A stretch of DNA of 64,000 nt, taken from positions 44,797 to 108,796 of the forward strand of contig CAKUWY010000006.1 of NCBI GenBank assembly GCA_934699585.1, read 5' to 3'. The notes under the pieces were generated by a model. That model saw only the letters and a list, made by a program, of their open reading frames with translations, was not told where the DNA came from and did not search any database. The first letter of the stretch is position 1, and every line of letters begins with the position of its first letter. This stretch comes from an uncultured Fibrobacter sp. Its GTDB lineage: Bacteria; Fibrobacterota; Fibrobacteria; Fibrobacterales; Fibrobacteraceae. A program made the translations under genes and the position numbers. Below are positions 13,978-56,248 of this stretch, one piece after another.

Positions 13978-13996
13978 CAATAGGTTCATTTCTGCA

Positions 13997-14455: not shown

Positions 14456-14475
14456 AATAGACCAATATAGTAAAA

Positions 14476-16319: not shown

Positions 16320-16359
16320 TTAGCTACTCCTTGATTTGTACGGCGCAAATGTAGTAAAA

Positions 16360-16394
16360 TAGAGCCTAGAAACTAGGGGTTAGGGGCTAGTGAA
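16360..16394. repeat. 7-nt stop-codon array: TAGAGCC TAGAAAC TAGGGGT TAGGGGC TAGTGAA
   Basis: Five exact-period units in the divergent glyA/yihY spacer, 41 nt upstream of the glyA start. Confidence 0.75.
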
Positions 16395-16547
16395 GAGGGT
16401 GAAAAATGCTTGGGTCCGAACTTTCGTAACGCCGGCACATAGCATCTAATTTTTAACTCTTTATCCATCAACAAATTACACATTCTTCCCTTATTTAAAA
16501 AGCCCGCCTCCCACTTATCCCTTTTATTTTTTTATCTTTGTTCCCAG

Positions 16548-28639: not shown

Positions 28640-28650
28640 GGCTAAACGCT

Positions 28651-29394: not shown

Positions 29395-29404
29395 TCCGGA
29401 AAAA

Positions 29405-29585
29405 CATCCAGCGGATGCCCCAACAAGTGGGGCATGACGACGAAAGATCCTCATCCAGCGGATGCCCCAACAAGTGGGGCATGACGAAGAATCCATATCC
29501 AGCGGATGCCCCAACAAGTGGGGCATGACGACGAAGGATCCACATCCAGCGGATGCCCCATCAAGTGGGGCATAACGATGATGGA
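29405..29585 (-). repeat. Tandem array of four REP-like hairpin units (period about 45-47 nt)
   Basis: Four units of CATCCAGCGGATGCCCCAacaagTGGGGCATGACGA plus a 9-11-nt linker. The last copy is diverged (..ccccatcaagtggggcataacga..). Lies between convergent genes. Confidence 0.85.
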
Positions 29586-33968: not shown

Positions 33969-33986
33969 GAAACTCCGCAGGCTCCA

Positions 33987-34634: not shown

Positions 34635-34687
34635 ATATAGCTTGTTTACCCAATTTTTTTTATCTTTCCGAATAGAAACGCTACATC

Positions 34688-38141: not shown

Positions 38142-38316
38142 TCCGACCCTAACCAGCATCACCATTAAGCAATAGGGCAAGTCTTTGCCTACCCCCTCTG
38201 CGGGGGCACACCACCTAAAGGTGGCCATGCCCACATAAGCGCTGAAGCGCTAAGTGGTCAAAGGCCGCAACGCCCCCTAAATAATCCGAGTCTCAAGGGC
38301 ACAGTCGCAGGCACAG

Positions 38317-38619
38317 ATGGTGAAATTGTTTGATAAATACCAATCTGTTATTGCAAGGCACATCAAAAATGTGTTTAAGGAGGGAGAACTCCCACAAGAG
38401 GGTAATATGCAAATTTTGCATATTACCCTGTCAAAATTCAAGCCAACAACAATATATTCACTCGACGTATTTATCTCCGTCGGTTATCGCGTCAAATCAT
38501 TCCGAAGAACCCAATTCCGCCGCTGGGCGAATCAAGTCCTGAAAGACTACATACTCAAGGGCTATGCCGTAAACCAACGTAAAATTGCGACTGATTTGCA
38601 AATTGCAGACCGCTTATAG
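38317..38619 (+). pseudogene. RhuM-family (virulence-associated) gene fragment
   Basis: ..IARHIKNVFKEGEL.., ..YSLDVFISVGYRVKSFRRTQFRRWANQVLKDYILKGY.. match the conserved RhuM N-terminal region. It is only 100 aa, whereas intact family members are, as I recall them, several-fold longer. Confidence 0.6.
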
Positions 38620-38737
38620 CGTCTTGAACTTTATAACACCCGGGGAGGTCATTGAGAAGGTCCGCGAAAGCACGAAGGGGTGAAAAGGGAGAGGGGGGAG
38701 CGGATGATGCATGAAGGCCCTCGCCAAGATGATAGTG

Positions 38738-38761
38738 GATCCTCGCCTTCGCGAGGATGAC
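38738..38761 (-). repeat. REP-like hairpin element
   Basis: GATCCTCGCcttcGCGAGGATGAC has an 8-bp stem. Confidence 0.6.
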
Positions 38762-38792
38762 GAGAAAGGTCGCGAGGACGACATGCAGCAGA

Positions 38793-38918
38793 AGCGACCT
38801 TTGGACACTTGGCCTTTTATACGACTCTTAGTGCTTTAGCACTTAGTGGAGTTATGCCCTTTGGGTAAGGCCTTAGTGTACATGGCCACCTTTAGGTGGT
38901 GCGGGAGGCCTCCCCCAC
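38793..38918 (+). repeat. Dispersed ~126-nt structured repeat, copy A
   Basis: Positions 38793-38887 are identical (95/95) to 62785-62879; the tail is diverged. Contains hairpins agtgc-ttta-gcact, ccacct-tt-aggtgg and gggagg/cctccc. Confidence 0.9.
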
Positions 38919-39017
38919 CATTTTAGCGACCCCTAGTCCAGTTTTTAGGCTGTCCCGTCGTTTTTCTTGACCTAAAGTTCGTGTTTTTTGCCCCATTTTT
39001 CTATCTTTGAGCCCACT

Positions 39018-42000: not shown

Positions 42001-43451
42001 TGATGCGCATGCTGCACCTTGATTCCAACAAGGAAATGCTCATGCTCAAGCTGGACGAGGGTGATGCCCGGGGCCCCGTGGGAATCCGCGTCAAGAGCTT
42101 TATCGAAACGGTAAAGGCCCGCCGCGCGGCAAACCTGCCCGACAAGCCCGAAAGCCACGAGCCCCTGTTCCACACGCCCTTCTTGCCCGAAGACAAGAAG
42201 CGTCGCCGCATTCTGACACCGAACCTCTCTCCCGCCTTTACCGTGCTGGCTAGCGAATACATGAAGCGGGAAGGTTACATCGCCGAATACCTGCCGGTGG
42301 CCGACCGCAAGGCCATCGAACTCGGCAAGAAGTTCGTGCACAACGACATCTGCTTCCCCTGCCAGGTGAACATCGGCGAAGCCCTCCGCTGGCTGGTGGA
42401 ACACCCCGAAGTTCCGCAGAACCAGGTTTCCATGTGCCTTGCCAAGAACTGCGAAAACTGCCGCGCCGTGCAGTACGCCGTACTCGCCCGTAAGGCCCTT
42501 GACGAAGCCGGTTTCAAGGACGTGACCATCATTACCACCGGCGTGGACTACAAGGGCATGCACCCCGGTTTCCAGCTGGGCCTCGACTTCAGACTCCACA
42601 TGCTGTGGGGCCTTGTGACCATGGACGCCATCGAGACCATGTACCGTGCCGTGCGCCCCTACGAAGTGAACGCAGGCGACACCCAGAAGGTCTACGACGA
42701 ATGGATGCCCAAGGTGATTGCCGTCGCAGGCCACCTGACCACAGCCCAGCTAGTGCGGCCCTCCAAGCTCATCGAAGTCTTTGAACAGTGCATCGAGGCC
42801 TTCAACGGAATCGAAATCACCGAAGAACGCAAGAAGGGTATCCGCAAGCCACGCGTAGCCGTGCTTGGCGAAATCCTGATGAACTACCACCCCAGCGCCA
42901 ACGGCTTTGTGGAAAACTACCTGATGAACAACGGCATGGAAGTCTACCTGCCGGGCATAACGGACTTTTTCCGCGTGGACGAGGTGGTCCGCGCCGAAAA
43001 GATCAAGCGCGGATTCTCCGCGAACCCCATCATGGACCGCGTGGAAGGCGGCGTGACGGCAAGGGTCTATACCCACGCCGTGGAGACCGCCCGCAAGTCC
43101 ATGCACAAGTTCAAGCTGTACGAGCACCACGCCGACTGCGTGGAACTGAAGGACTACGTTTCCGACATCATCGACCCCACCTACAACACGGGCGAGGGCT
43201 GGATGATTCCGGGAGAAATCCTGTACAACGCACAGCACGGAGTGAACAGCTACATCATCTTGCAGCCCTTCGCCTGCCTTGCAAACCACATCTCCGGCCG
43301 TGGCCTTACCAAGGCCGTGAAGGAACGCTGCCCCCACGTGCAGATTCTTAGTCTTGACTACGACCCGGATACCAGTTTTGCAAACATCGAAAACCGCCTG
43401 CAGATGCTGATTATCAACGCCCGCGAGCTGGAAAAAGCAAACCAGAAATGA
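39018..43451 (+). CDS. BCR/HAD-family fusion protein: two BcrAD/BadFG-type activase ATPase domains plus dehydratase-like/DUF2229-like C-terminal half; architecture of the anaerobic plasmalogen synthase PlsR-PlsA
   Basis: Two actin-fold ATPase starts (..VGVDVGSTTVKIAVVD.. and ..YLGIDAGSTTTKFVLMD..), each followed by ..GGQD.K.. and ..ACSSGCGSF../..CAGGTGAF.. cluster-ligand regions. The C-terminal ~800 aa carry Cys motifs (..CQYCTNHCSRT.., ..CFPAKL.., ..CFPCQ..). Start ATG 39018. Confidence 0.7.
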   Translation: MSNLKNDLWVGVDVGSTTVKIAVVDPETSKLLHYTYQRHNAMQAQKVYEVLREAHGLFPEKNFRVAFCGSGGQPFAEATHAFFVQEVVANALAVRATYPESRVAIELGGQDAKVVFFEKDKTTGKLIASDMRMNGVCAGGTGAFIDQVAELLRIKTEAFEGFAKRGQKVYEISGRCGVFAKTDIQPMLNNGVAKEDIALSSFHAIAKQTIGGLAQGMEIKPPVIFEGGPLTFNPTLVRAFKERLGISDEQAIVPEHSEVLVAMGAALSLGSMFADQECQYRREGSLDSLIHFNETRQAENKAKAAADLFFKNDAEYKLFLEEHKMAGNNYPQPASGSTLNVYLGIDAGSTTTKFVLMDEQENVVDGFYASNNGEPLQVLKNALNELSDRYEEYGCTLNILGVGTTGYGEQLFAKAVHADYHTVETVAHANAAQKICPDVSFILDIGGQDMKAISVQDGVVTGIILNEACSSGCGSFIETYARSLGIPMEKIAELAFNAKSPSQLGSRCTVFMNSSIITEQRDGKQPEDIIAGICRSIINNVFTKVIRIRNLNTLGKKVVVQGGTFKNNAVLRAFEQYTGLKPIRPERPGEMGAIGIALLTKKFMEEKRKTEPELKSRFIGLDAMKTFSWHNQPGQLCQYCTNHCSRTIVTFSDGQSFVTGNRCERGEVTADPNDPKTKALIAEINKKMQSVPDMIKRTNQLLVKDYAPAKLVENNGKTIGIPRVLEFWASLPFWKAFFTSLGYTVVVSRQSDYKMFEAGLHSVPSDTVCFPAKLVHGHVLSLIEKKVDRIFFPMMVAVPSDHTKFTATSVCPVVQAYPNVCKNTDEPEKNYGVPMDQPIFHWFNAKLRRSQTIDWFHENWKLDKKLLDKAVTEGEKALNSYRTTLLEEGQKVLDDVRAKNSFAVVIAGRPYHADTLINHNIASHFTAMGIPVLTTESLPGVYDQDVPSHTRIEIKNTFHLRMIGATMIAAKDPNIELAQIVSFGCGHDSILTDEMMRMLHLDSNKEMLMLKLDEGDARGPVGIRVKSFIETVKARRAANLPDKPESHEPLFHTPFLPEDKKRRRILTPNLSPAFTVLASEYMKREGYIAEYLPVADRKAIELGKKFVHNDICFPCQVNIGEALRWLVEHPEVPQNQVSMCLAKNCENCRAVQYAVLARKALDEAGFKDVTIITTGVDYKGMHPGFQLGLDFRLHMLWGLVTMDAIETMYRAVRPYEVNAGDTQKVYDEWMPKVIAVAGHLTTAQLVRPSKLIEVFEQCIEAFNGIEITEERKKGIRKPRVAVLGEILMNYHPSANGFVENYLMNNGMEVYLPGITDFFRVDEVVRAEKIKRGFSANPIMDRVEGGVTARVYTHAVETARKSMHKFKLYEHHADCVELKDYVSDIIDPTYNTGEGWMIPGEILYNAQHGVNSYIILQPFACLANHISGRGLTKAVKERCPHVQILSLDYDPDTSFANIENRLQMLIINARELEKANQK

Positions 43452-44554
43452 TAATGCGGAGAGCCGTTCTGTTCTACCTGTGCATAGCGATTTTCGCTTT
43501 TGCACAGTCTAGTTCCGCTCCTCCCTCCAGCAAGGAAATCAACATGGACCTGGAACATGAAGACGTGTTCCAGCGTTATTCCGTAGTGCCGGTCCTGGGG
43601 TATACAGAAGAAACCGAATTCCAGTACGGTTTCATGGCCCTATTCTTCCTGAAGCCCGACCAGAAAGGAGAAAAGGTGCCCGAAATCGGGTTCACCGCTT
43701 ACGGTTCCACCAGAGACCAGCTTCACCTGGCCCTGGAGCCCTATTTCTATTTTCTCCACGACCGGGTCACCCTTTGGAGCCTGCTCAAGTACCAGGACTG
43801 GGTCGCCAGCTATTTCGGGAGAGGCAACGATCCGGACATAGACAAATTCGTCAACTACGACCGAAAAAAATTACAGCTGGGCACAAGGGTCGAATCCAGG
43901 ATAGGACTGCCCCAGAGCCTCAAGTACGGCGTCGAAATCCACGTAGAGCATTCGGACATAGACTTTGAGGAAAGCGAGACCATCAAGACCCCGGATACCC
44001 ATTCGGGCTGGCGAAACGGCATCGGTTACCTGTTTGGGCTGGACACCCGGGACAACACCAACTGGACCCGCCACGGTTACCTTTTGCAGTGGCAACAGAT
44101 GTTCTACAACAACCATTTCGGAGACTACACCTTCGACACGGAATCCCTGGACTTGCGAGGCTATACCGAAACACCCCTGCAAACCTCCCTGGCTCTCGGT
44201 TTTCTCTGGATGCGCTCCGGCGGAGACGTTCCCTTCGACATGCTGGCCGGCCCAGACGGAATATGCCGATTCCGCGGAGTGGAAAGTCTCTACTTCGGCG
44301 ACAACCAGGCGGTCATTCTTCAGGCAGAAATCCGGCGCTTCTTGTTCTGGCGTTTCGGGAGCCACGTCTTTTTCGAAGGGGGCAAGTCCGGCGGCTATTT
44401 CAGCGACCTGGTTCGCAACGAATGGCACAAGTCCGTCGGGATAGGCGCTCTGCTCGGCCTGAACCTGAAAGAAAACCTGTTTGCCCGCGCGGATTTTTCG
44501 TGGGTGGATTTCGACCACCTGGGTCTTTCGTTCTATGTCCGACAGGCTTTTTAA
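43448..44554 (+). CDS. Omp85/D15 (bacterial surface antigen) beta-barrel protein without POTRA domains
   Basis: Signal peptide MIMRRAVLFYLCIAIFAFAQS. ..LDLRGYT.., ..RFRGVESLYFGDNQ.. and terminal ..LSFYVRQAF fit an Omp85 barrel. The ATGA overlaps the stop of the 1477-aa gene. Confidence 0.65.
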   Translation: MIMRRAVLFYLCIAIFAFAQSSSAPPSSKEINMDLEHEDVFQRYSVVPVLGYTEETEFQYGFMALFFLKPDQKGEKVPEIGFTAYGSTRDQLHLALEPYFYFLHDRVTLWSLLKYQDWVASYFGRGNDPDIDKFVNYDRKKLQLGTRVESRIGLPQSLKYGVEIHVEHSDIDFEESETIKTPDTHSGWRNGIGYLFGLDTRDNTNWTRHGYLLQWQQMFYNNHFGDYTFDTESLDLRGYTETPLQTSLALGFLWMRSGGDVPFDMLAGPDGICRFRGVESLYFGDNQAVILQAEIRRFLFWRFGSHVFFEGGKSGGYFSDLVRNEWHKSVGIGALLGLNLKENLFARADFSWVDFDHLGLSFYVRQAF

Positions 44555-44580
44555 CCAACCTCTAACTCAACAACTTCCCT

Positions 44581-44985
44581 ATGACCCCTTGTAACCACAC
44601 CCACACCACCCGAATCGAAGTCCGCTATGCCGAAACCGACCAGATGGGGGTGGTCCACCATGCCGTTTATCCCGTCTGGTTCGAACTGGCCCGTACCGAC
44701 TATTTCCGTTCCCTTGGCGCCAGTTACCTGGAAATAGAAAAGGAGGGGTTTGTAAGCCCGGTTCTCAAGCTGGAAGTCCAATACAAGCGCCCCACCCACT
44801 ATGGGGAATTTGTGGATATCGAAACCACCCTGACCCGCAAGGGGGCTCTCCACTTCGTATTCGACTACAAGGTTTTTGTCGATGGAGCGCTCTGCACCAC
44901 AGGCTCATCCGTGCACTGCTTTCTAAAAAACGGGCAACCCACGCGAGAACTGCCCGACCAAGTCAGAAAAATATTCCCGGATTAA
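44581..44985 (+). CDS. Acyl-CoA/acyl-ACP thioesterase, 4HBT (YbgC/FadM) family
   Basis: ..IEVRYAETDQMGVVHHAVYPVWFELARTDYF.. is the hot-dog thioesterase signature. Confidence 0.8.
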   Translation: MTPCNHTHTTRIEVRYAETDQMGVVHHAVYPVWFELARTDYFRSLGASYLEIEKEGFVSPVLKLEVQYKRPTHYGEFVDIETTLTRKGALHFVFDYKVFVDGALCTTGSSVHCFLKNGQPTRELPDQVRKIFPD

Positions 44986-45112
44986 ACACTTTTACGCTCT
45001 TTTCGTCCTGCATATCGGGCGGTATATCGGAAAAAAACACGCTTTTTAGCGAGAAATTCCGTTATTTTTCTATTTTTATCTTGTTATTTTCTAAAATTTT
45101 CGAGGTAAAAAA

Positions 45113-45358
45113 ATGGATCAAGAAGAAGTCAAAAGCAAATTGAAGGCGTTTTTCATGTCGGATCTGGGCGTAGATGGCGACGTTCTCCAGTACGACACCG
45201 AACTTTTCGGCGAAGAAATCGGCCTGGATTCCGTGGATTCCCTGGAAATCATCTCCTTCGTGGACAGCAACTTCAACGTGTCCATGACCGGCGTCGGCAA
45301 GGAACATTTCCAGTCCATCAATACGATTGCCGCCTATATAGAAGCCCACAAGGCATAA
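45113..45358 (+). CDS. Acyl carrier protein (specialised, non-AcpP type)
   Basis: 81 aa. Phosphopantetheine attachment motif ..IGLDSVDSLEII... Confidence 0.8.
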   Translation: MDQEEVKSKLKAFFMSDLGVDGDVLQYDTELFGEEIGLDSVDSLEIISFVDSNFNVSMTGVGKEHFQSINTIAAYIEAHKA

Positions 45359-45373
45359 CCTAATCTACATCTT

Positions 45374-47770
45374 ATGACTCCTGACGAACGCCGCTGTGTA
45401 GTTACTGGCCTGGGCGTTATTTGCGCCGTCGGTAACAATGTTGAAGAAACCTGGAAAAGCGCCCTGAATTCCGTTTCGGGGATCCACAAGACCATCTCGG
45501 TGGATACCACCAAATGTTATGCGGACTTGGCCGCCGAAGTCAAGTGCGACACCCTAGATGAAATCGACGCCCCCGAAGAAAAAGACCGGGTCTCCAAACT
45601 TTGTATCAAGGCCACAAAAGAAGCCCTGGCCGATGCAGGTCTTGCAAACTTTAACGACGACCAGCGCGTAAGCGTGGTCATCGGCAGTTGCGTAGGCGGA
45701 GTCCTCTCTATTGAGCGTTACCATCAACACGGTCGCGATGTTTCTGAAATTGCCAAGATGCCCATTGCGGCAATCGCCTCCCAGGTAGCCGAAATCTGCG
45801 GGGCAGGCGGAATCGTCACCAATGTAGCAAACGCCTGTGCAGCAGGCACAATTTCTATAGCCGTCGCCTGTGACCTGATTCGTGCCGGCAAGGCAGACGT
45901 GGTTATCGCAGGCGGAGCCGATTCCTTTGCGGCGGTTCCCTATTCCGGATTCCTTTCGCTCCACGCCCTGGACGAAAACGGCTGCTCCCCCTTCAACCGC
46001 TGCAACGGAATCACCCTCGGCGAAGGTGCGGGTATCGTCATCGTGGAATCCTACGAACATGCCCAGAAGCGTTCCGCAAAGCAGTACTGCGAAATACTGG
46101 GTTCAGGCGTCACCAGCGACGCAAACCACATCACCGCCCCCAGAGAAGATGGCGTGTGCCTGATGGAAGCCATCAGCCGCGCCGTCAAGAATTCCGGCAT
46201 CGACAAGTCCGATATCGGTTACGTGAACGCCCACGGCACGGGTACCGGCAAGAACGACAATGCCGAAATTACCGCCTTCAAGAATTTCTTCGGCGAAGAC
46301 AACGTCAATATCTCGGTAAGTTCCACAAAGGTTCTCACTGGGCACTGCCTGGGAGCGGCCGGCGCCATCGAAGCCGTATTCAGCATCAAAGCACTAACCA
46401 CGGATACGGTCCTCCCAACCTTCCCCTACACCGAAGAACAGTCCGCCGCCCTCAAGGAAAAGGTGGGAGCGCTGGACTTTGTGCAGAACACAGCCCGCCA
46501 CAAGGAACTCAAGTGTGTCTTGAGCAACAACGTGGCCTTCGGCGGCACGAATGCGGCCATTGTTTTCTCGAAAATCCCCGGCGAAGTTGCCGCCCAGTCT
46601 GCGGCAGGCAAGAAGATTGCCGTAACCGGTCTTGGAATCGTGTCCCCGCTAGGGAACAGCAAGGCGGCCTACCTGGAAGCAGTAAAGGCAGACAAGAAGC
46701 CCGAATCCCCATCGGTACATTCCACAATCGCCCTCGAAGACTACAAGGAGCTTGGGGTCAAGATGGCCTTCTACCGCAAGCTGGACAACCTAGGTCAACT
46801 CCAGACGGTATCCGGCATGCGCGCCCTCCAAGACGCCAGCTTCACGGTAACCGAAGACAATGCCAAGGACATCGGCATCATCGTGGGTACCAGCGAAGGC
46901 GGCCTCGGTGCCACCTACGATTTCGAGGAACTGATTGCACGGGAAGGCAACTCCCAGGGTTCGGCCTTCAAGTTCCCCCACACCGTTTACAATGCGGCTG
47001 GCGGCTACCTTTCCATTTGTTCCGGCATCAAGGGCTACGGCGTCACCATTACCACAGGCCCACTTTCAGGACTCGACAGTATCGGCTACTCCATGAACGT
47101 GATTCACGACGGCCAGGAAAAGGCAATGATGGCCACCGGTACAGACGAAAACCTGCCGATTATTACGGAATTTGCCCAGAAACTTGGCGTGGCGGCAAAT
47201 AATGTGGTCGCACCCTATGCCGAAAACGACGGCTTTGTGGTGGGCGATGGTTCCGTGTCTATCATGCTCGAAGAAGATTCTTATGCCAAGTCCCGGGGAG
47301 CCAAGGTTTACTGCTATGCGCTGGGCTTCGGCCACGGCCGCAAGAACGTGAAATTTGGAAAACTCGCCGATTCCGAAAACGCCCTCGACAAGGCCATTGC
47401 AGATGCCCTGGCCGATGCGGGCATCACCGTAAGCGACATCGATGCGGTTTGCGGGTTCGCCAACGGTTGCAAGCGGATTGACGATATCGAAAAGGGTTCC
47501 CTCAAGCGCGTGTTTGGCGAAAAACTTTCCACGACGCCGCTCTTCGAAGTCAAGGAACGTACCGGCGAAGGCCGTGCGGGGTCTGCCGCCCTGGCCGCCG
47601 CCGAAGCGGCCCTCCTGCTGAGTGGTGAACTTGCTGGCGAAAAAGCCTACTTTGTGGCGGCCGACGGTTCCGTGACATCCAAGAAGGTCGATGCGACTGG
47701 CCTCAAGAAAATTTTGGTGATTTCGTTTGCGGCAGGCGGGTCTTACAGCGCAGTCATTTTCGGTAAATAG
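45374..47770 (+). CDS. Fused beta-ketoacyl synthase and KS-like (chain-length-factor-like) didomain protein
   Basis: Domain 1: ..NACAAGTISIAVA.. (Cys), ..NAHGTGTGKND.., ..LTGHCLGAAGAIE.., ..AFGGTNAAIVFSK. Domain 2 restarts with ..KIAVTGLGIVSPLGN.. but has ..GTSEGGLGATY.. where the Cys motif should be, and lacks the HGTGT motif. Ends ..AAGGSYSAVIFGK. Confidence 0.8.
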   Translation: MTPDERRCVVTGLGVICAVGNNVEETWKSALNSVSGIHKTISVDTTKCYADLAAEVKCDTLDEIDAPEEKDRVSKLCIKATKEALADAGLANFNDDQRVSVVIGSCVGGVLSIERYHQHGRDVSEIAKMPIAAIASQVAEICGAGGIVTNVANACAAGTISIAVACDLIRAGKADVVIAGGADSFAAVPYSGFLSLHALDENGCSPFNRCNGITLGEGAGIVIVESYEHAQKRSAKQYCEILGSGVTSDANHITAPREDGVCLMEAISRAVKNSGIDKSDIGYVNAHGTGTGKNDNAEITAFKNFFGEDNVNISVSSTKVLTGHCLGAAGAIEAVFSIKALTTDTVLPTFPYTEEQSAALKEKVGALDFVQNTARHKELKCVLSNNVAFGGTNAAIVFSKIPGEVAAQSAAGKKIAVTGLGIVSPLGNSKAAYLEAVKADKKPESPSVHSTIALEDYKELGVKMAFYRKLDNLGQLQTVSGMRALQDASFTVTEDNAKDIGIIVGTSEGGLGATYDFEELIAREGNSQGSAFKFPHTVYNAAGGYLSICSGIKGYGVTITTGPLSGLDSIGYSMNVIHDGQEKAMMATGTDENLPIITEFAQKLGVAANNVVAPYAENDGFVVGDGSVSIMLEEDSYAKSRGAKVYCYALGFGHGRKNVKFGKLADSENALDKAIADALADAGITVSDIDAVCGFANGCKRIDDIEKGSLKRVFGEKLSTTPLFEVKERTGEGRAGSAALAAAEAALLLSGELAGEKAYFVAADGSVTSKKVDATGLKKILVISFAAGGSYSAVIFGK

Positions 47771-47793
47771 TTTCAGGTAGAAGGAGCGAAAAC

Positions 47794-48525
47794 ATGAAAG
47801 TTGCTTTGGTAACAGGTGCTTCAAAGGGTATCGGCAAGGCCTGCGCCTTGCGCCTTGCCCGCGACGGCTACACCGTCGTAGTGAACTACTCCAGTTCCGA
47901 CGAGGCAGCAAACGCCACGCTCGACCAGATCAAGGCCGAAGGTGGTGACGGCATGGTTTACAAGGCGAACGTGGCCGACCTCTCCCAGGTGAAGGTGATG
48001 GTTCGCGAGGTGTTCAAGGCTTACGGGCGCATTGACGTGCTGGTGAACAACGCAGGCATCGTTCGCGACGAATACCTGATGATGATGAACCCGGAAACCT
48101 TGGACAAATGTTTCGACCTGAACGTGAAGGGTTACTTCTACTGTGCCCAGCAAGTCGCTGTCAAAATGTATAAGCAGAAGTCCGGCGTGATTATCAACAT
48201 GAGTTCCGTGTCCTCGAAGTTCGCGTTGGCAGGCCAGGCGGTCTACAGCGCCACGAAGGGTGCGGTGAACTCGCTGACCCAGACCCTCGCGAAGGAGCTG
48301 GGCGGTTTCGGTATCCGCGTGAATGCCGTGGCTCCTGGATTTATCGCTACCGAGATGATCGAGGCCATTCCCGAAGAAACCCGCAAGGGCTACCTCGAAA
48401 AGATTCCCTTAAAACGTTTCGGTTCTGCCGATGAAGTGGCCAACATCGTGTCGGCCCTGGCCTCTGACCAGTTCGCCTATGTGACCGGCCAGGTGTTCGT
48501 GCTGGACGGAGGACTTTCCCTATGA
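47794..48525 (+). CDS. 3-oxoacyl-ACP reductase (SDR, FabG-like)
   Basis: ..VALVTGASKGIGKA.., ..NNAG.., YSATKGA. Confidence 0.85.
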   Translation: MKVALVTGASKGIGKACALRLARDGYTVVVNYSSSDEAANATLDQIKAEGGDGMVYKANVADLSQVKVMVREVFKAYGRIDVLVNNAGIVRDEYLMMMNPETLDKCFDLNVKGYFYCAQQVAVKMYKQKSGVIINMSSVSSKFALAGQAVYSATKGAVNSLTQTLAKELGGFGIRVNAVAPGFIATEMIEAIPEETRKGYLEKIPLKRFGSADEVANIVSALASDQFAYVTGQVFVLDGGLSL

Positions 48526-48968
48526 TGAACATTTACGAAATCAGCGAAAAGATTGCACAGCGTCCGCCGTTCCAGATGATCGAGAAAGTGACGGAACTTA
48601 CGCCGAACGAATCGGCCGTGGGCATCAAGAACGTAAGCGTGAACGAACCGTACTTTATGGGGCATTTCCCCGGCACTCCGATTATGCCGGGCGTGCTCAT
48701 TGTGGAAAGTTGTGCCCAGCTTTGCTCCCTAGTGATAGAAAAACCCGCCGAAGACTTGGAAAAGAACCTATACGTCCTTCTGAAGATTGACGGGTTCAAG
48801 TTCGTGAAGCCGGTAATCCCCGGCGACCAGCTCGAAATTTCCGTGAAGAAGACCAAGGAAGGGGGCGTGCTGGTAGGCTTTGACTGCATCGTGAAGGTGA
48901 ACGGAAACGTCCACGCCAAGGGTGCCCTCACCTTTACGAGCATTCCAAAGGAATCCTTAGGGAAATAG
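48522..48968 (+). CDS. 3-hydroxyacyl-ACP dehydratase (FabZ-like hot-dog)
   Basis: ..EPYFMGHFPGTPIMPGVLIVESCAQL... Overlaps the upstream KR by 4 nt. Confidence 0.8.
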   Translation: MMNIYEISEKIAQRPPFQMIEKVTELTPNESAVGIKNVSVNEPYFMGHFPGTPIMPGVLIVESCAQLCSLVIEKPAEDLEKNLYVLLKIDGFKFVKPVIPGDQLEISVKKTKEGGVLVGFDCIVKVNGNVHAKGALTFTSIPKESLGK

Positions 48969-49007
48969 AAATCCGTGGTCAGTGGTTAGTGGTTAGTGGC
49001 TAGGAAC
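48966..49007 (+). repeat. 7-nt stop-codon array inside the operon: TAGAAAT CCGTGGT CAGTGGT TAGTGGT TAGTGGC TAGGAAC
   Basis: Exact period 7. The first TAG is the stop codon of the FabZ-like gene. Confidence 0.75.
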
Positions 49008-49037
49008 TCAAGGAAAAACCCGCTGGTAGAATGCTTC

Positions 49038-49793
49038 ATGCATCTCGTTGTCATCGTGGTGATATACACGGTGCGGATCTTTATGTTCGCCTGGTTCCGA
49101 CCGAAGGTTGAGTTCACAGGTGAAACCGCGAAGTCGGCCCGTCTCACTCACCCCTGCGTGATTATCGCCAACCATACCAGCATGCTGGACCCCATCATGA
49201 TGCTTGCCGTATTTTTTTCGCACAAGAGCATTGTGGTGGCCAAGGACCAGATTGAAGACCCCCATTTTCGTTGGGCGCTGACCCGCGCAAAGTGCGTGAT
49301 TCCCTGCGACCGATTCAATATGGACACCGAATGGGCGCTACTTGCCAGGCGGGAACTGGAAAAAGGGAACAACGTCATCATTTTCCCCGAAGGCAAGTGC
49401 CGCTACGACGGGCTGTTGAACGAGTTCAAGACGGGCTTTGCCTTCCTTGCGCGCAGTACCGGAGCGCCGGTTCTTTCCGTGGGGCTTGACGGGATCTACA
49501 AATTTGGACACCGTACCCGCATCGTGGTAGGAGATGCCGAAAAAATCGAACGGGTGAAGGGAATCACCTCTTCTAAGCACTTGGCAGAACGAAGCGAACA
49601 CTTTAGGCAGAAGGTCTGGCAGCTCAAGCAGAAGGCCCTTGACATAGCCAATCCGAAGGCTTTGCCCGTTGCCGCAGAAACACCTGTGGAATGTCACCCT
49701 GGAGCGTCAGCGATAGGGTCCACGAAAGCAGTGGATTCTATCGGTCCTACGGACCTCCAGAATGACAATGCTCAAAATAGGGGGAATGCATGA
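49038..49793 (+). CDS. Lysophospholipid acyltransferase family protein
   Basis: ..ANHTSMLDP.. (HX4D) and ..FPEGKCR... Start ATG 49038 is preferred, because the track start (GTG 48996) lies inside the heptad array. The C-terminal ~35 aa are encoded by REP-like elements. Confidence 0.7.
   Translation: MHLVVIVVIYTVRIFMFAWFRPKVEFTGETAKSARLTHPCVIIANHTSMLDPIMMLAVFFSHKSIVVAKDQIEDPHFRWALTRAKCVIPCDRFNMDTEWALLARRELEKGNNVIIFPEGKCRYDGLLNEFKTGFAFLARSTGAPVLSVGLDGIYKFGHRTRIVVGDAEKIERVKGITSSKHLAERSEHFRQKVWQLKQKALDIANPKALPVAAETPVECHPGASAIGSTKAVDSIGPTDLQNDNAQNRGNA
49693..49766. repeat. REP-like doublet, long-stem subfamily (GTCAyyCTGGAG..GATAGrrTCCAC), forming the 3' end of the acyltransferase ORF
   Basis: GTCACCCTGGAGCGTCAGCGATAGGGTCCAC (49693-49723) and, inverted, GTGGATTCTATCGGTCCTACGGACCTCCAGAATGAC (49731-49766). 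Confidence 0.7.
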
Positions 49794-50635
49794 AAACGGG
49801 GCTGGTTCTAGAGGGCGGTTCTCGCCAGACCATGTTCAGCGCAGGCGTGCTGGACACCTTCATGGACGAAGACATCCCCTTCGACTACATTGCAGGCGTT
49901 TCTGCCGGGGCACACGCGGCCATCAATTACATTACCCGCCAGCAAGGGCGTCTCCGCTTTATCGTCCTGCCGACACGTCTCCAAAAGGGCAAGAAATGGG
50001 CAAGCAAGTACATCGGCATCCAGAAGGAATTTCATGCCCTAAACTACTTGTCTGCCGACGGTGAAATGCCCCTGGACTTTGAAGCCTACGCAAGTTCCAG
50101 AGTCGAATGCGAAATCGGCCTCACCTGCTGTGAGACGGGTCGCGCCGAATTCAAGGGCGAAAAGCAAGACAAGAAACGGCTCCTGGACCTGATCAGCGCC
50201 AGTTGCGCCCTGCCCATGCTTTTCCCCATGGCAAAGCTAGACGACAAGCACTACGCCGACGGCTGCATTACCGAACCCATCCCCTACGAACGTGCCTTCG
50301 AAAAAGGGTGCGACAAGGTAGTGGCCATTTCTACCCACTATCCGGGCGAAGCGGTGACGGACTTTCGCAAGTACCGGGCCATCTTGAACCCGCTGTACAA
50401 GAACAAGTATCCCAACCTGTTTCGGGCACTAATGGTACGGCTCAAACGGTACGAAAAAAAATTTAGCCAGATGGAATCCCTGGAAAAAGAAGGCAAACTT
50501 TTCTTGATTCGCCCCCTTATTGACCTTTGCGACCAGTTCGATACCGACATGGACAAGATGAACGAATCCTATGAGCACGGCGTCGAAATGGCAAAGCAGC
50601 GTATGGAAGAACTAAAGGCATTCCTAGAAATCTAA
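49790..50635 (+). CDS. Patatin-like phospholipase
   Basis: ..GLVLEGGSRQ.. (oxyanion region), ..GVSAGA.. (GxSxG), ..ADGC.. (catalytic Asp). The ATGA overlaps the upstream gene. Confidence 0.8.
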   Translation: MKTGLVLEGGSRQTMFSAGVLDTFMDEDIPFDYIAGVSAGAHAAINYITRQQGRLRFIVLPTRLQKGKKWASKYIGIQKEFHALNYLSADGEMPLDFEAYASSRVECEIGLTCCETGRAEFKGEKQDKKRLLDLISASCALPMLFPMAKLDDKHYADGCITEPIPYERAFEKGCDKVVAISTHYPGEAVTDFRKYRAILNPLYKNKYPNLFRALMVRLKRYEKKFSQMESLEKEGKLFLIRPLIDLCDQFDTDMDKMNESYEHGVEMAKQRMEELKAFLEI

Positions 50636-50658
50636 CTTAATGGAATTAGGACCGTTGA

Positions 50659-51414
50659 ATGGCAGAAACAAAGAAAATCCTCGTAATGGTAGCGAGCCCC
50701 AAAAACGAACGGAGCGGCACACTGATTCCAACCAAGGCCTTTGTCCAGGGCCTTGAAGAAAACGGAAATTTTGAAACGGAATATATCTTCATCGACAAGA
50801 TGAACATCAAGCCCTGCCGTGGTTGTCTCAGTTGCTGGGGCAGGCCCGATGGCAGTTGCTTTATCAAGGACGACGACGTTCCCGCCATCCGGGAAAAACT
50901 AACCAACGCAGACATTGTCATCTGGAGTTTCCCGCTGTTCCTGTTCAGCATTCCTGGGCAGATGAAAGTGCTGATGGACCGTATCGTGGGAATGGTCCAC
51001 CCCTACATGGGCCAAAAACTTCAAGAAGGCGCAAACGCATCCAATTCCAACCTTCATGGGCTTCAGTTCCAAAAAGAAGGCCAGAAAATCATCTTGCTGT
51101 CCAGCTGCGCCTGGTGCGACATCGACGTTGTTTACGAGCCCATCGTAAAGCAGTTCGACATTATCCTGGGACACGAAGGCTACCAGCTTGTGGCCTGCCC
51201 CCAGATGCGGGCCCTGCACCACCGGGGCGGGGAACGCAGGCTAAACATCTTGCGCAAGCGGTACTGGCAAGGCGGCGCAGAACTTGCAAAGACAGGCAAG
51301 CTCTCAAAAGAGACGATAGACCTCATGCAAAAGACTATCTTTAGCGACGAAGCCTACGAGAAACTGGTGGTAGAATTCGTAACCCACATGTTTGACCGGG
51401 ATGACAATTTCTAG
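50659..51414 (+). CDS. Flavodoxin-fold NAD(P)H-dependent FMN reductase / iron-sulfur-flavoprotein-like protein
   Basis: ..KILVMVASPKNERSGT.. and ..KPCRGCLSCW.. are typical of this family. Confidence 0.6.
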   Translation: MAETKKILVMVASPKNERSGTLIPTKAFVQGLEENGNFETEYIFIDKMNIKPCRGCLSCWGRPDGSCFIKDDDVPAIREKLTNADIVIWSFPLFLFSIPGQMKVLMDRIVGMVHPYMGQKLQEGANASNSNLHGLQFQKEGQKIILLSSCAWCDIDVVYEPIVKQFDIILGHEGYQLVACPQMRALHHRGGERRLNILRKRYWQGGAELAKTGKLSKETIDLMQKTIFSDEAYEKLVVEFVTHMFDRDDNF

Positions 51415-51440
51415 TTGTTCCATTAGGCAAGAATTTCCAA

Positions 51441-52508
51441 ATGACAGCGATTGCAGAAACCATAAGACTCCCCGCCCGGTTGACCGCCGCCAACAGCAGG
51501 GATCTTCTGCATAGATGCAGGGGTTGTCTCCGCAAGGGCGATCTCTGCCTTGACGGGACAATGCTTGCCCAGATGGACTATAGCGGCGACGCCTTTTTTT
51601 CCCTGCTGGCCGACCTGTCCGAAAAGACGGGGCACAAGCTGACCCTCGCCCATTTCTGTGACGACATAAAATCCCACCTAAAAAATTTAAAAAGGCAAAA
51701 GGTCCCTGCAGGAGAAAAAAGCAAACGCCATTTTCTTGAAATCCTTGGAGAAAAGGGGATAAGGGCAGCCAAGGGCACAGCCGAAGTTTTCGTGTTGCTG
51801 AACATGTCCATCTACTGGAGCCTGCTGGGGCCGTTCGACAAGGGAAAAATCAAGTTTCGCGGGACGGCCAAACAAATTTTCGCACTGGGGAGCGAAGCCA
51901 TGGGCATCTGTTTTTTGATGGTGGCCCTGATTTGCTTTACCATGGCCCTGCAAAGTTCCTTTATGCTTAAGGCCGTAGGCGGCGGCTCCTACCTGGCCTC
52001 CGGTCTCGGATTCCTGATTTTTGCAGAAATCGGACCGCTTCTGACCACCATCATTCTGGCGGGTCGCTCCGGCAGTTCCATTGCGGCAGAAATCGCCAAC
52101 ATGTCCGTATGCGAAGAAGTAAAGGCCATCAAGACCATGGCCATTCCGCCTGTTCAATACCTGGTGGTGCCCCGCTTTATCGCCATGAGCATTTGTACGC
52201 CAATCCTTTCATTCTGCGCCTCCATCTGCGGATGTTTCGCCGGATTCCTGATAGCCTTCTTTTTCTTTGACATCACCTTTACCAACTATTTCAACTCTAT
52301 CCGCGAAGGCATCGAGCCAATCCTTTTCTTAAAGAGTTCCATCAAGGCACTTGTATTTGGATGGTTGGTCACCCTTATATCTTGCAACAAGGGGTTGAAC
52401 GCCACCGGCGGTGCCGAAGCGGTTGGCCTCGCCACAACATCCAGCGTGGTAACTTCCATTTCCGCAATCATCGTTGCCGACACCTGCTTCGGCTTCATAT
52501 TCTACTGA
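51441..52508 (+). CDS. MlaE-family ABC permease with N-terminal STAS-like domain
   Basis: The N-terminal ~90 aa (..RLPARLTAANSRDLL..LDGTMLAQMDYSGDAFFSLL..) are STAS-like. The rest is a polytopic MlaE-type permease (..EIGPLLTTIILAGRSGSSIAAEIANM..). Confidence 0.7.
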   Translation: MTAIAETIRLPARLTAANSRDLLHRCRGCLRKGDLCLDGTMLAQMDYSGDAFFSLLADLSEKTGHKLTLAHFCDDIKSHLKNLKRQKVPAGEKSKRHFLEILGEKGIRAAKGTAEVFVLLNMSIYWSLLGPFDKGKIKFRGTAKQIFALGSEAMGICFLMVALICFTMALQSSFMLKAVGGGSYLASGLGFLIFAEIGPLLTTIILAGRSGSSIAAEIANMSVCEEVKAIKTMAIPPVQYLVVPRFIAMSICTPILSFCASICGCFAGFLIAFFFFDITFTNYFNSIREGIEPILFLKSSIKALVFGWLVTLISCNKGLNATGGAEAVGLATTSSVVTSISAIIVADTCFGFIFY

Positions 52509-52515
52509 GGACAAA

Positions 52516-53313
52516 ATGGTAGTTCCATCGAAAAGCGCAATTCTCCAGGTAGATCACCTGAAAGCAGGTTACGGTGGCAGGACCGTTTTGAACGACATAT
52601 CCTTCGACGTAAAAAAGGGTGAAATCCGCATGATCCTGGGAAGTTCCGGCTGCGGGAAATCTACGCTGCTGAACAACATCCTAAAACTGATAAAATCCCA
52701 AAGCGGGACCATCACCTATTTCGGGAAAACCTTCGGTGCCAAAGAAGGGCTGGACAGCGAGACCCGCATGCGTACCGGCGTCCTTTTCCAAAACGGGGCG
52801 CTACTTTCGGACCTGACCGTAGCAGAAAACGCCATGCTCCCCCTGATTCGCAGCATGCCCTACATGCCCAAAAGCCAGATGGAAGCCATCGTTGCCGACA
52901 GGCTGGAAAAAGTCCACCTGCTGGACGCCTTCCACAAGTATCCTTCGGAATTGTCTGGGGGAATGAAAAAAAGGGCCGCCCTCGCCCGGGCCATCGCCCT
53001 CAAGCCAGAACTGCTGTTCTGCGACGAACCGTCCACTGGACTGGACCCGATTACCGCCCGCTCTTTGGACGAACTCCTGCTGGAACTTAGGGACACCCTG
53101 GGAGTTTCCATGGTTATTGTGTCTCACGAGCTGGAAAGTATCAAGATTATATGCGACAGGTTCGTATATTTGCAGGAAGGATACGTACTCATGGACGGAA
53201 CACTGCAACAAGGACTAGATAGCGAAAACCCGACCCTCTGGAATTTTTTCCGCAGGGAATGCCCCCCCGAAAAAGACAACAATGAATATTACCATTTCGA
53301 TTTTCTAGACTAA
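52516..53313 (+). CDS. ABC transporter ATP-binding protein (MlaF-like)
   Basis: Walker A GSSGCGKST, signature LSGGMKKR, Walker B LLFCDEP. GAGG lies upstream of ATG 52516. Confidence 0.85.
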   Translation: MVVPSKSAILQVDHLKAGYGGRTVLNDISFDVKKGEIRMILGSSGCGKSTLLNNILKLIKSQSGTITYFGKTFGAKEGLDSETRMRTGVLFQNGALLSDLTVAENAMLPLIRSMPYMPKSQMEAIVADRLEKVHLLDAFHKYPSELSGGMKKRAALARAIALKPELLFCDEPSTGLDPITARSLDELLLELRDTLGVSMVIVSHELESIKIICDRFVYLQEGYVLMDGTLQQGLDSENPTLWNFFRRECPPEKDNNEYYHFDFLD

Positions 53314-53323
53314 AGAGTGAAAG

Positions 53324-54250
53324 ATGGAAACCACACGCTCCGAAAGAATAAAGATTGGCGCTTTCATGCTCTTTTGCGGAATACTTATCCTGGTATTCCT
53401 GGGCTACGTCCTGTCCCGCTACCTGAACAAGGAATACGACTATTACTACACCATATTCAACGATTCAGTCATTGGCCTGTATAACGAAGCGCAGGTCAAA
53501 CTGAACGGCATTGATGTGGGAAACGTGGTAAGGATTCAAATCGACTCCACGGACTTGAACCAGGTCGTGGTGATTTTCCGAGTAAACAGGGGGACTCCAA
53601 TCAAGCAGGGAACCAGGGCAAGTATGACCCATGGGATTTCCCTTACTGGCGAAAAGCAAATAGTTCTCTCTGGCGGACGTTTTGACGAACCCAATGTGGA
53701 AAAGAATGGTTATGTTCCCGCAGCAGAAAATTCATTTGACAAGTTTGCAAACCAGGCAGGCGACATCGTTGGAAATGTAGATGCACTGGTTGGAAACCTG
53801 AACCGTATTTTTTCCAGGGAAAACGTAAACAACATCAGCAGCGCCCTGAAAAATTTGGAAAGTGCGACCAAGAATTTGGACCAGTTGACACAGAACATAT
53901 CCTCCCCTATCGAGAATTTCTCTGCTGCAGCCAATTCCATGAAAACCATTCTGGGAGAAATCGAGGAAGCCAAAATCGCAGCCAAGGCGGGAACTGACCT
54001 AGACCTGATCAAGGAGAAACTGGAAGCCATCGATACCAGGACCATGAACGACAACCTGCAGCAGACGCTGGAATCCGTAAAGCAGTTGACTGGGCGCCTG
54101 GACCAGACCGTCTATAAGAATCAAGACCAGGTAGAAAATGTCATTACCGAACTGAACGCGGTGCTTTCCAACATGGAAGAATTCTCCCAAAAGATCAAAA
54201 ACAATCCCTCGGCACTTATCCATTCAGAAGCCAAGGAGAGACGCAAATGA
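53324..54250 (+). CDS. MlaD/MCE-domain protein with long C-terminal helical region
   Basis: N-terminal TM helix, then ..VIGLYNEAQVKLNGIDVGNVVRIQID.. (MCE fold), then a coiled-coil-like tail. Confidence 0.7.
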   Translation: METTRSERIKIGAFMLFCGILILVFLGYVLSRYLNKEYDYYYTIFNDSVIGLYNEAQVKLNGIDVGNVVRIQIDSTDLNQVVVIFRVNRGTPIKQGTRASMTHGISLTGEKQIVLSGGRFDEPNVEKNGYVPAAENSFDKFANQAGDIVGNVDALVGNLNRIFSRENVNNISSALKNLESATKNLDQLTQNISSPIENFSAAANSMKTILGEIEEAKIAAKAGTDLDLIKEKLEAIDTRTMNDNLQQTLESVKQLTGRLDQTVYKNQDQVENVITELNAVLSNMEEFSQKIKNNPSALIHSEAKERRK

Positions 54251-54870
54251 TTCGATACACGTCATTCTGGGCTGCGACCCGGAATCTAGCGGCGCTTTTA
54301 TTGCTTACCCTTACCCTGACAGGTTGCTTTGGCGGCGGGACCTCTGAGCCTACACGTTACTATACCCTTGCCGTAGAAAACATTTCTGCACCCAAGGCGA
54401 GCGAGACACTTGCAAGCAAGAGCGTAACCGTAAAGAAATTTACCATCGACCCCGCCTACCAGCGCTCAAATATCGTCTATCGGGAATCTGCCTACGACTT
54501 CATGTTCTACGACCTGGACCTCTGGGCAAGCCGGCCGGAACACATGATTACACGGGTCGTCACGGAATATGTTGAAAAGAGCAAATTGTTCAAGTCTGTT
54601 ATTGCGGCAGGCGGCATCATGCCGGATTACGAACTCTCTGGCCACATCGGGGCAATCGAGGAGGTTGACGAAGGCAGTTCCCAGTCAGCACACCTGACTA
54701 TTGGCCTCACATTCAAGAGCGTCCAGTCGAGCGCTATCTTGTGGGAGGGCAAATGCGACAAAAGTAGGTCCACCACTAGCAGGGAACCGAGAGTCACGGC
54801 GGAAGCCCTGTCCAAACTACTGGGCGAATGCTTGGAAGAAAGCCTGAAGGGGATTTCTTCTATAGAATAA
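54247..54870 (+). CDS. ABC-transport auxiliary lipoprotein (PqiC/YmbA-like)
   Basis: Lipobox ..LTLTLTGCFGG. ..YYTL.. and the size fit the DUF330/PqiC family. Overlaps mlaD by 4 nt. Confidence 0.55.
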   Translation: MIRYTSFWAATRNLAALLLLTLTLTGCFGGGTSEPTRYYTLAVENISAPKASETLASKSVTVKKFTIDPAYQRSNIVYRESAYDFMFYDLDLWASRPEHMITRVVTEYVEKSKLFKSVIAAGGIMPDYELSGHIGAIEEVDEGSSQSAHLTIGLTFKSVQSSAILWEGKCDKSRSTTSREPRVTAEALSKLLGECLEESLKGISSIE

Positions 54871-56148: not shown

Positions 56149-56248
56149 AAAAGGTGTAATTTCTATATTTACCCGGGAAAATTTAAGCAGGCATGGATTT
56201 TGCGGCAGATAAGCGAACCGCGGCAATTCCCGTGCCAAAGAGGAAAAG

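Follow-up and report, generated by a model that had tools for sequence, protein, structure and literature searches.

A fused-ketosynthase lipid module and an adjoining Mla/MCE operon in an uncultured Fibrobacter sp.

The 64,000-nucleotide stretch of the uncultured Fibrobacter sp. contig CAKUWY010000006.1 that was analysed here (the window) carries at 44581-54870 a block of twelve plus-strand genes for acyl-chain synthesis, glycerolipid acylation and lipid transport of the Mla/MCE type. On balance, the block probably consists of two juxtaposed units that adjoin in this species only. The first is an accessory lipid module derived from fatty-acid synthase (FAS), located at 45113-50635 with accessory genes at 43448-44985 and 50659-51414, and the second is an Mla/MCE operon at 51441-54870. 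The domain calls, based on Pfam and NCBIfam profile searches and on sequence inspection for motifs, are as follows.

43448-44554, plus strand: Omp85-superfamily beta-barrel protein (Omp85 24.7 bits; signal peptide), upstream of the twelve-gene block
44581-44985, plus strand: 4HBT thioesterase, YbgC/FadM/MenI-like (Pfam 4HBT_2/4HBT; TIGR00051 77 bits)
45113-45358, plus strand: dedicated acyl carrier protein (ACP) with the attachment site GLDSVDS (PP-binding 24.9 bits); first gene of the invariant core
45374-47770, plus strand: fused ketosynthase (KS) and chain-length-factor (CLF) protein, KS-CLF, 798 aa (two ketoacyl-synt/Ketoacyl-synt_C pairs)
47794-48525, plus strand: FabG-like 3-ketoacyl-ACP reductase (KR) of the short-chain dehydrogenase/reductase type (adh_short_C2 217.8 bits)
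48522-48968, plus strand: FabZ-like 3-hydroxyacyl-ACP dehydratase (DH; FabA domain 93.2 bits), overlapping the KR gene by 4 nt
48996-49793, plus strand: acyltransferase of the PlsC/LPLAT (lysophospholipid acyltransferase) family (PF01553 77.7 bits; N-terminal membrane helix, HX4D as NHTSMLD, FPEG)
49790-50635, plus strand: patatin-like lipase with C-terminal DUF6363 (Patatin + DUF6363), overlapping the LPLAT gene by 4 nt
50659-51414, plus strand: flavodoxin-fold flavoprotein (FMN_red/Flavodoxin_2; CxxCxxCx7C)
51441-52508, plus strand: STAS-MlaE permease (MlaE 204.7 bits; weak STAS_2)
52516-53313, plus strand: MlaF-like ABC ATPase (ABC_tran 111.4 bits; mechanical start of the open reading frame (ORF) at TTG 52474)
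53324-54250, plus strand: membrane-anchored single-MCE (MlaD) protein (MlaD 45.5 bits; PqiB-like C-terminal helical needle)
54247-54870, plus strand: PqiC-like outer-membrane lipoprotein, ABC_trans_aux (PF03886 34.1 bits; lipobox LTLTGC)

Separate conservation of the two gene sets

The window proteins were compared with about 160 loci, and only loci with enough flanking DNA were counted as informative. The synteny sample came from a metagenome scan, and the Fibrobacteraceae were represented in it by 44 loci outside the window's species, with KS-CLF 70-94% identical. At the informative loci of this sample, the KS-CLF gene was adjoined by the ACP gene in 42/42, by the KR gene in 41/42 and by the DH gene in 38/40 cases, while the LPLAT and patatin genes adjoined it in 28/36 and 27/34. 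An Omp85-like gene was found there at 17 of 36 loci, the thioesterase at four of 41, the flavoprotein at two of 25 and the PlsA/R-like gene at none of 30. The transporter genes were never found beside the KS-CLF gene (MlaE 0/21, MlaF 0/18, MlaD 0/16, PqiC-like 0/16), and the same goes for alr (0/16), the gene that follows the block in the window. No contigs other than those of the same species (L001, L086, L121) had the window's complete arrangement. The locus of Hallerella porci comprises genes for an Omp85-like protein, thioesterase, ACP, KS-CLF, KR, DH, LPLAT and patatin, and continues with convergent unrelated genes.

The ACP, KS-CLF, KR and DH genes form a conserved core, usually with the LPLAT-patatin pair behind it, and this pattern is unambiguous despite the sampling. 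The 4HBT thioesterase is a variable accessory gene of the module. The initial annotation of this DNA had proposed gene-neighbourhood conservation as a test of its view that all twelve genes form one unit; the twelve genes proved not to be co-conserved, with the Mla genes at 0/16 to 0/21 elsewhere.

The genes for STAS-MlaE, the ABC ATPase, the MlaD-needle protein and ABC_trans_aux form a stand-alone operon in Fibrobacter sp. UWH4 and in two metagenome-assembled genomes (MAGs; L164-L166). The operon lies directly after hflX in the two MAGs, and a uvrD-type helicase gene stands in between in UWH4. Housekeeping genes surround it, and no FAS-like neighbours were found in UWH4 or the two MAGs. The hflX-side site, which bears on relocation versus duplication of the operon, was also looked for, and that region does not lie within the window.

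The nucleotide identity between the window and the conspecific contigs L086 and L121 is 66-78% over 51.5-54.8 kb. The identity of the flanks, from the plsA/R-like gene to the flavoprotein gene and in alr, is about 83-99% and mostly above 90%, with isolated 500-bp bins of L086 down at 74-79%. Between the strains, three of the four Mla proteins share 73-84% identity, which is similar to the between-species values; the PqiC-like lipoprotein is 75-79% identical between strains and 59-63% between species. Because this divergent Mla block lies within conserved flanks, the cassette has been exchanged independently of its neighbours, which suggests that it was recombined or allelically replaced as a whole between strains. 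Such replacement offers a minor, separate clue to how the envelope diversifies in Fibrobacter. In L121 (17663-18654), the PqiC-like gene and alr are separated by about 1 kb of additional DNA, where the window has 9 nt.

The presence of the operon on its own elsewhere and its separate recombination history do not agree with the twelve genes being one unit. Nor did the Mla genes turn out to be the module's own transporter, as they do not adjoin it at other Fibrobacteraceae loci or at Firmicute loci.

The transporter genes were recognised at the family level. The Pfam thresholds for MlaE, ABC_tran and MlaD were passed, the STAS_2 domain of the MlaE protein scored 24.2 bits against a threshold of 29.2, and the scores on the NCBIfam equivalog models for MlaE, MlaF, MlaD and PqiC were below their cutoffs (159 bits on the MlaF model, cutoff 441). 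The orthologues of the MlaF-like ATPase have 261 aa, and the likely start is the ATG at 52516. The C-terminus of the MlaD protein matches that of PqiB (E 7.4e-12), its homologues carry PF28544 Helical_needle, and its orthologues are exactly 308 aa long and about 72% identical throughout Fibrobacter. Like MlaFEDB and PqiABC, the window operon has MlaE with a fused STAS domain (MlaB-like), an ABC ATPase and an MCE protein, together with a PqiB-like needle and a PqiC-like lipoprotein. Unlike either of them, it is a hybrid in which an ABC-driven single-MCE protein with a needle is combined with PqiC; neither MlaC nor MlaA is encoded at the locus, and the needle and the lipoprotein are there instead. 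The Mla operon is best regarded as encoding a genus-wide, predicted intermembrane lipid transporter of the ABC/MCE-needle/PqiC type that in this species happens to stand between the module and alr. The genus has paralogues of these genes, with at least three MlaE and at least four MCE genes in F. succinogenes S85; among the S85 genes listed, no synteny with the window was seen near leuCD.

The ORF listing of the window confirmed the twelve genes in the order and on the strand given by the initial annotation, and all twelve identifications agreed with the Pfam and NCBIfam results. The intergenic distances are, in order, 127, 15, 23, -4, 27, -4, 23, 26, 7, 10 and -4 nt, so the spacing of about 30 nt or less, apart from one gap of 127 nt after the thioesterase gene, was also correctly described. 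The mlaE-mlaF distance of 7 nt applies to the ATG start of mlaF and becomes -35 with its TTG start. The co-directional run continues past 54870 with alr at 9 nt and pheT at a further 100 nt, and farther upstream an acyltransferase gene overlaps ruvA by 4 nt. Spacing alone therefore does not mark a functional unit in this genome, and with alr following so closely, tight spacing is no evidence of shared function.

Scans for sigma-70 promoters and terminators gave no more matches than shuffled sequences. A TAnnTTTG-like (TTTCTATCTTTG-type) element was found about 20-30 nt before the ACP start codon in L003, L083, L093, L105, L110, L120 and L128. The window has only a near match to TAnnTTTG (45060-45085, in the 127-nt gap before the ACP gene) and a similar TTTCTATATTTA before pheT (56165-56180). 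We take TAnnTTTG to be a Bacteroidetes-type -7 motif, and these elements may be its Fibrobacter equivalent. The elements before the ACP gene suggest that a transcription unit begins with it. Neither mlaE nor alr was seen to have a promoter-like element in front.

The module and its predicted chemistry

KS-CLF is predicted to be an active FabF-like ketosynthase joined to a catalytically dead KS-like domain, which is a KS-CLF arrangement. The N-terminal half (residues 1-404) retains Cys155/His287/His324, a triad that is invariant in an alignment of 22 fused homologues. The aligned positions of the C-terminal half (about 412-798) are Pro/Phe/Glu in the window and variable in the 22 homologues, and the retention of the triad in one half with its loss in the other argues for an active KS fused to a dead domain. 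No Gln is conserved at the former Cys site among the 22 sequences (P/A/G/F/N and others), so that decarboxylative priming of the KSQ type is not indicated. When compared with solved structures, the N-half scored 262 bits with FabF and 154-167 bits with polyketide KS/CLF proteins, and the C-half 131 and 50-62 bits, respectively. The heterodimers of type II polyketide synthases (PKS), e.g., actinorhodin (1TQY) and 6KXD, likewise pair an active KS with a Cys-less KS-like partner, and their KR and DH work on an ACP-bound chain; in the module, however, both halves are one polypeptide, and they are closer to FabF structures. The PDB entry 6KXD, titled 'Ketosynthase', is presumably the ishigamide Iga11-Iga12 pair, which belongs to a highly reducing type II PKS.

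The fusion represents a large family, with dozens of proteins of 750-830 aa and 30-56% identity in a search of representative proteins and with homologues in hundreds of protein clusters, some of which have about 1000-1650 member sequences. Many Fibrobacter isolates and MAGs, as well as Hallerella porci, have proteins 77-91% identical to that of the window, and the exact protein is also present in public rumen-type assemblies. The gene set centred on this fusion is very widespread among anaerobes of the rumen and gut and apparently uncharacterised: no description of it was found in the literature searched, including that on Fibrobacter fab genes, aryl polyenes and ladderanes, although the searchable literature is incomplete and this is not proof.

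The nearest relatives outside Fibrobacterota (44-56% identical) come from Lachnospiraceae, Oscillospiraceae and Ruminococcus, and a homologue from an Anaeroplasma MAG is about 61% identical to the Firmicute query P0122. The following arrangements were found.

L005, L167, L168 (Lachnospiraceae): TetR / patatin-LPLAT-ACP-KSCLF-KR-DH(-FabD-PmbA-TldD-AccD-AccA)-flavoprotein-acyl-ACP thioesterase
L085, L131, L139: flavoprotein-LPLAT-ACP-KSCLF-KR-DH-FabD-AccD-AccA
L007: KSCLF-KR-DH-flavoprotein ... patatin
L006 (Oscillospiraceae MAG SIG422), 9700-19333: ACP-KSCLF-KR-flavoprotein-FabH-FabK-FabD-FabG-FabF-FabZ

The window KR is 57-69% identical to the Firmicute module copies, the patatin gene travels with the LPLAT gene in the Lachnospiraceae module loci, and at all Firmicute loci with sufficient flanking DNA the flavoprotein gene accompanies the module. 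Genes for chain building recur in two phyla together with those for the LPLAT, the patatin-like lipase and the flavoprotein, in line with the earlier view that the chain-building genes belong with the LPLAT and the patatin. Their context in Firmicutes is fatty-acid synthesis and not pigment or antibiotic synthesis. The canonical fab stretch of L006 has no acpP, and the module's ACP gene is the only one in the array; since the module is accompanied there by the whole canonical set, FabH and FabK included, it adds a function and replaces none. Moreover, because the module occurs in Firmicutes hosts without an outer membrane, it needs no Mla system.

The CxxCxxCx7C motif of the flavoprotein is invariant in seven orthologues (window, L005, L006, L085, L122, L131 and L167), as is Cys150. 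We assume that this motif resembles the compact cysteine motif of iron-sulfur flavoproteins, and the module protein may be one of them. A single-sequence AlphaFold model of it was poor (mean pLDDT 52.7). The best solved relative of the family is FLR, the flavone reductase of Flavonifractor plautii (PDB 7D38, profile E 8.6e-13). FLR founded a new class of flavodoxin-fold ene-reductases, makes no direct use of NAD(P)H, and reduces a C=C bond conjugated to a carbonyl. The two proteins have in common an N-terminal flavodoxin core and a CxxCxxC...C stretch; FLR, however, has 310 aa and a substrate-binding C-terminal tail that the module protein lacks. On this distant homology, the module flavoprotein is a reasonable candidate for reducing, or otherwise acting on, an enoyl intermediate. 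The profile searches found no FabH, FabD or FabI/K/L/V among the twelve proteins, so the initial annotation was right that no FabD or FabH is recognisable. Its further premise that an enoyl reductase is missing is accurate for FabI/K/L/V but doubtful beyond them, as the relationship of the flavoprotein to the ene-reductase FLR weakens it.

The patatin protein has intact GGSR, GVSAG and DG motifs (GGxR/GxSxG/DG). Sequence inspection found no signal peptide, and the lipase is predicted to be cytoplasmic. The occurrence of Omp85 and patatin genes in one cluster resembles the PlpD-type patatin/Omp85 systems, from which the module patatin differs in having no signal peptide. Among the Fibrobacter-specific neighbours of the module, the Omp85 barrel (43448-44554), in which no further domain is recognisable, is the most frequent.

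Which acceptor is used, in what order the steps follow, what the flavoprotein does and what kind of product arises are inferred from these identities. The dead KS-like domain would take the place of the second subunit of a KS dimer, as a chain-length factor does, and KS-CLF would add malonyl units to a chain carried by the dedicated ACP of the module. The FabG-like KR and the FabZ-like DH would process each beta-keto group, after which the double bond could be kept, reduced by the flavoprotein where it is present, or reduced by a housekeeping reductase. The PlsC-type acyltransferase would then move the finished acyl group from the ACP to a lyso-glycerolipid, the patatin-like lipase may provide this acceptor, in a cycle of deacylation and reacylation, by cleaving off a resident chain, and the thioesterase may edit or release chains. 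Judged from its enzyme families, the module would work like a type II FAS or like a highly reducing type II PKS with a KS-CLF, and it probably does not belong to the aryl-polyene (APE) family.

Relation to known systems

Several observations weigh against the division into an accessory module and an unrelated Mla operon, or against parts of it. The rumen metagenomes that supplied the counted loci overlap, and the loci lack phylogenetic independence. The LPLAT-patatin pair is not beside the core in about one fifth of the loci, and the remodelling step is therefore not obligatorily linked. The flavoprotein gene is not beside the module in most Fibrobacter loci, and the match of its product to FLR spans only the first approximately 105 residues, including the Cys-rich stretch. 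Its gap to mlaE is only 26 nt, without a promoter-like element seen, so that read-through from the module into mlaE and alr is possible in this species, without functional meaning. There is also a small chance that the Mla copy in the window is an extra, specialised paralogue alongside an hflX-linked copy.

A more far-reaching proposal, which we put forward tentatively and do not regard as probable, is that the ACP, KS-CLF, KR, DH, flavoprotein, LPLAT and patatin constitute an unrecognised type II FAS branch of anaerobes. The covalent KS-CLF would set the length of a chain on a private ACP, the FLR-like, Cys-rich flavoprotein would represent either a novel enoyl-ACP reductase class or a dehydrogenase/isomerase like FabX, and a remodelling cycle of patatin and LPLAT would place the product in membrane glycerolipids. 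Given its position in or beside the fab/acc operons of Clostridia, the module could be the anaerobic pathway to unsaturated or otherwise special acyl chains that has been missing there. To our knowledge, no dedicated enzyme for unsaturated fatty acids was known in Clostridia as of a 2009 paper. From the product of the module one would learn how abundant fibre degraders and butyrate producers adapt their membranes, and a new class of enoyl reductase, if the module revealed one, could be a narrow-spectrum drug target.

It is unlikely that the module is one part of a split APE-like system, i.e., a highly reducing type II PKS, which together with a gene trio farther upstream would make a polyene lipid without enoyl reduction and export it to the outer membrane. 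The APE clusters of E. coli CFT073 and Xenorhabdus doucetiae (apeA-R) likewise have a KS and CLF, KR, DH and dedicated ACP, together with a 4HBT thioesterase and an LPLAT that acylates a lysophospholipid, and the gene content of the block overlaps ApeO/C, ApeQ, ApeP/I, ApeE/F, ApeK and ApeD. The conjugated fatty acyl chain of APE lipids is put in place by an LPLAT, the module DH has a weak ApeI-like match, and distant fused KS-CLF homologues (28% identical) occur in an APE-like Prevotellaceae cluster. The trio, which the initial annotation had overlooked, lies on the minus strand at 29619-33968 (29.6-34.0 kb) and encodes an MMPL transporter, a FabG2-type KR and a KS that passes PRK09116 (625 bits, cutoff 470), in the order apeM...apeQ-apeR. 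It looks like a partial APE-like set without its own ACP, DH or CLF nearby.

However, both halves of KS-CLF are closer to FabF than to polyketide KS or CLF proteins, and their scores are below the cutoffs of the ApeO-type model PRK09185 (274 vs. 407) and the ApeC-type model PRK06519 (70.6 vs. 320). The APE core set comprises apeO/R (KS), apeC (CLF), apeE/F (ACPs), apeI/P (DHs), apeQ (KR) and apeM (transporter), and APE clusters have a separate KS and CLF, aryl-starter activation, a methyltransferase, two ACPs and two DHs. The block falls short of this set, with one ACP, one DH and no ApeM-type transporter inside it, and export in APE clusters is RND/LolA-like and not of the Mla type. As previously noted for this DNA, an ammonia-lyase, an ApeH-type adenylating enzyme and a methyltransferase are absent from the twelve proteins, and also from those of the two genes upstream. 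The Firmicute module stands in fab/acc operons with an ene-reductase-like flavoprotein. The ApeM/Q/R-like trio is 11-14 kb upstream of the module, beyond ruvA, mqnE and a RhuM-family fragment (38317-38619), and synteny with the conspecific L086 and L121 breaks upstream of about 38.3 kb, where this fragment lies. The fragment suggests a mobile-element scar or a rearrangement junction at the breakpoint (about 38300-38900).

The comparison also affects the claim that a cluster which combines biosynthesis with intermembrane transport is of an undescribed type. This was overstated, because APE clusters, which encode a PKS, a lysolipid acyltransferase and outer-membrane export proteins together, have been described, and because the Mla genes are not co-conserved with the module.

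We consider it improbable, and a little more so than an APE-like system, that these are the fabF/fabG/fabZ/plsC genes of housekeeping fatty-acid synthesis in Fibrobacter, with a KS that is unusual in being fused. The enzyme families and the elongation chemistry are the same as in a canonical type II FAS (AcpP, FabF, FabG, FabZ, PlsC), and the KS N-half, KR and DH are at or near the FabF, FabG and FabZ equivalog cutoffs: KS-CLF scored 477.6 bits on TIGR03150 (cutoff 493.75), KR 270.1 bits on TIGR01830 (cutoff 297.75), and DH 137.5 bits on the FabZ model NF000582 (cutoff 113) and 134.6 bits on TIGR01750 (cutoff 155.15). KS-CLF (77-92% identity), KR (88-98%) and DH (86-99%) are very highly conserved across the genus, and some Firmicute modules are followed by FabD-AccD-AccA with no FabF, FabH or FabK in view.

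On the other hand, the module ACP is not AcpP-like. It scored 32.1 bits on the AcpP model TIGR00517, far from the cutoff of 70.45 for an orthologue, and is about 24% identical to E. coli AcpP, to which canonical AcpPs of other, unrelated loci are 50-79% identical. KS-CLF is fused, below the FabF cutoff and probably not the sole elongating KS, as the module-bearing Fibrobacter contigs L109 and L110, whose KS-CLF is 79-81% identical to that of the window, also carry a stand-alone FabF (555.7 and 551.3 bits on the same model). The full FabH/K/D/G/F/Z set beside the module in L006 also speaks against a housekeeping role. Moreover, the module differs from a canonical type II FAS in the covalent fusion of its KS with a dead KS-like domain, in its linkage to genes for a patatin-like lipase and a Cys-rich flavoprotein, and in the absence of FabH, FabD and FabI/K/V from its Fibrobacter locus. 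The divergent ACP and the canonical fabF on related contigs argue for an accessory FAS-like branch, and the module is predicted to be an addition to ordinary fatty-acid synthesis and not the main FAS, which the initial annotation had also concluded. Among the genes listed for F. succinogenes S85 (up to approximately gene 1800), the annotation includes a FabV-type 'trans-2-enoyl-CoA reductase', and the module, fabF and acpP are not among them. A gene for an MbcS-like short-chain acyl-CoA synthetase accompanies the canonical fabF just downstream of the module in L109 (5524-9584). Fibrobacter need short branched or odd-chain acids as fatty-acid primers, and these two genes may relate to that need.

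Least probable of all, and by our estimate very doubtful, is that the twelve genes are one system that makes a special chain, attaches it to a lysolipid and uses an Mla-type machine of its own to bring it to the outer membrane. The tight spacing on a single strand, the lack of a promoter-like element between the flavoprotein gene and mlaE, the same arrangement in the conspecific contigs L086 and L121 and the possibility of specialisation among several MlaE/MCE paralogues of Fibrobacter would fit it. However, the Mla genes are not beside the module at the 16-21 informative loci of other Fibrobacteraceae, nor in Hallerella, monoderm Firmicutes have the module with no such genes beside it, elsewhere the same operon of four genes is found by itself, the cassette was exchanged independently of its neighbours, and alr is spaced just as tightly. 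The lipid factory with its own Mla transporter fails the cross-genome comparison, and this reading should not be propagated.

Four known products or systems were rejected: flavoaffinin, the yellow affinity substance of cellulolytic clostridia, has a cluster of another architecture (type I PKS + FafAC + CoA ligase), polyunsaturated fatty-acid synthases gave only weak domain-level matches to PfaA, the two KS genes of the ladderane loci in anammox bacteria are separate and match the N-half only, at 36-38% identity, and the cispentacin models AmcB/E/F all scored below cutoff.

Surroundings of the block

The pair of genes directly upstream, previously described as PlsR-PlsA-like and Omp85, was confirmed as encoding a protein with two BcrAD_BadFG domains and DUF2229 and an Omp85-like protein. 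The former (38988-43451) has 1487 aa, with its two BcrAD/BadFG domains of the ATPase type, and its gene is beside the module only in the window's species. We take it to fit a fused PlsA/PlsR-type enzyme of plasmalogen or ether-lipid synthesis.

An Rfam search over 36-60 kb of the window gave no matches. The ORFs at 28642-29301 and 33906-34640 have no family matches and an odd composition, and are probably not genes. A gene with a Fib_succ_major domain is located near the block. Downstream of the minus-strand KS gene of the trio, at 29404-29578, there is a 47-nt tandem repeat of 3.8 copies with an 88% match and the internal palindrome GCCCCAACAAGTGGGGC in each copy, which may be a REP-like element.

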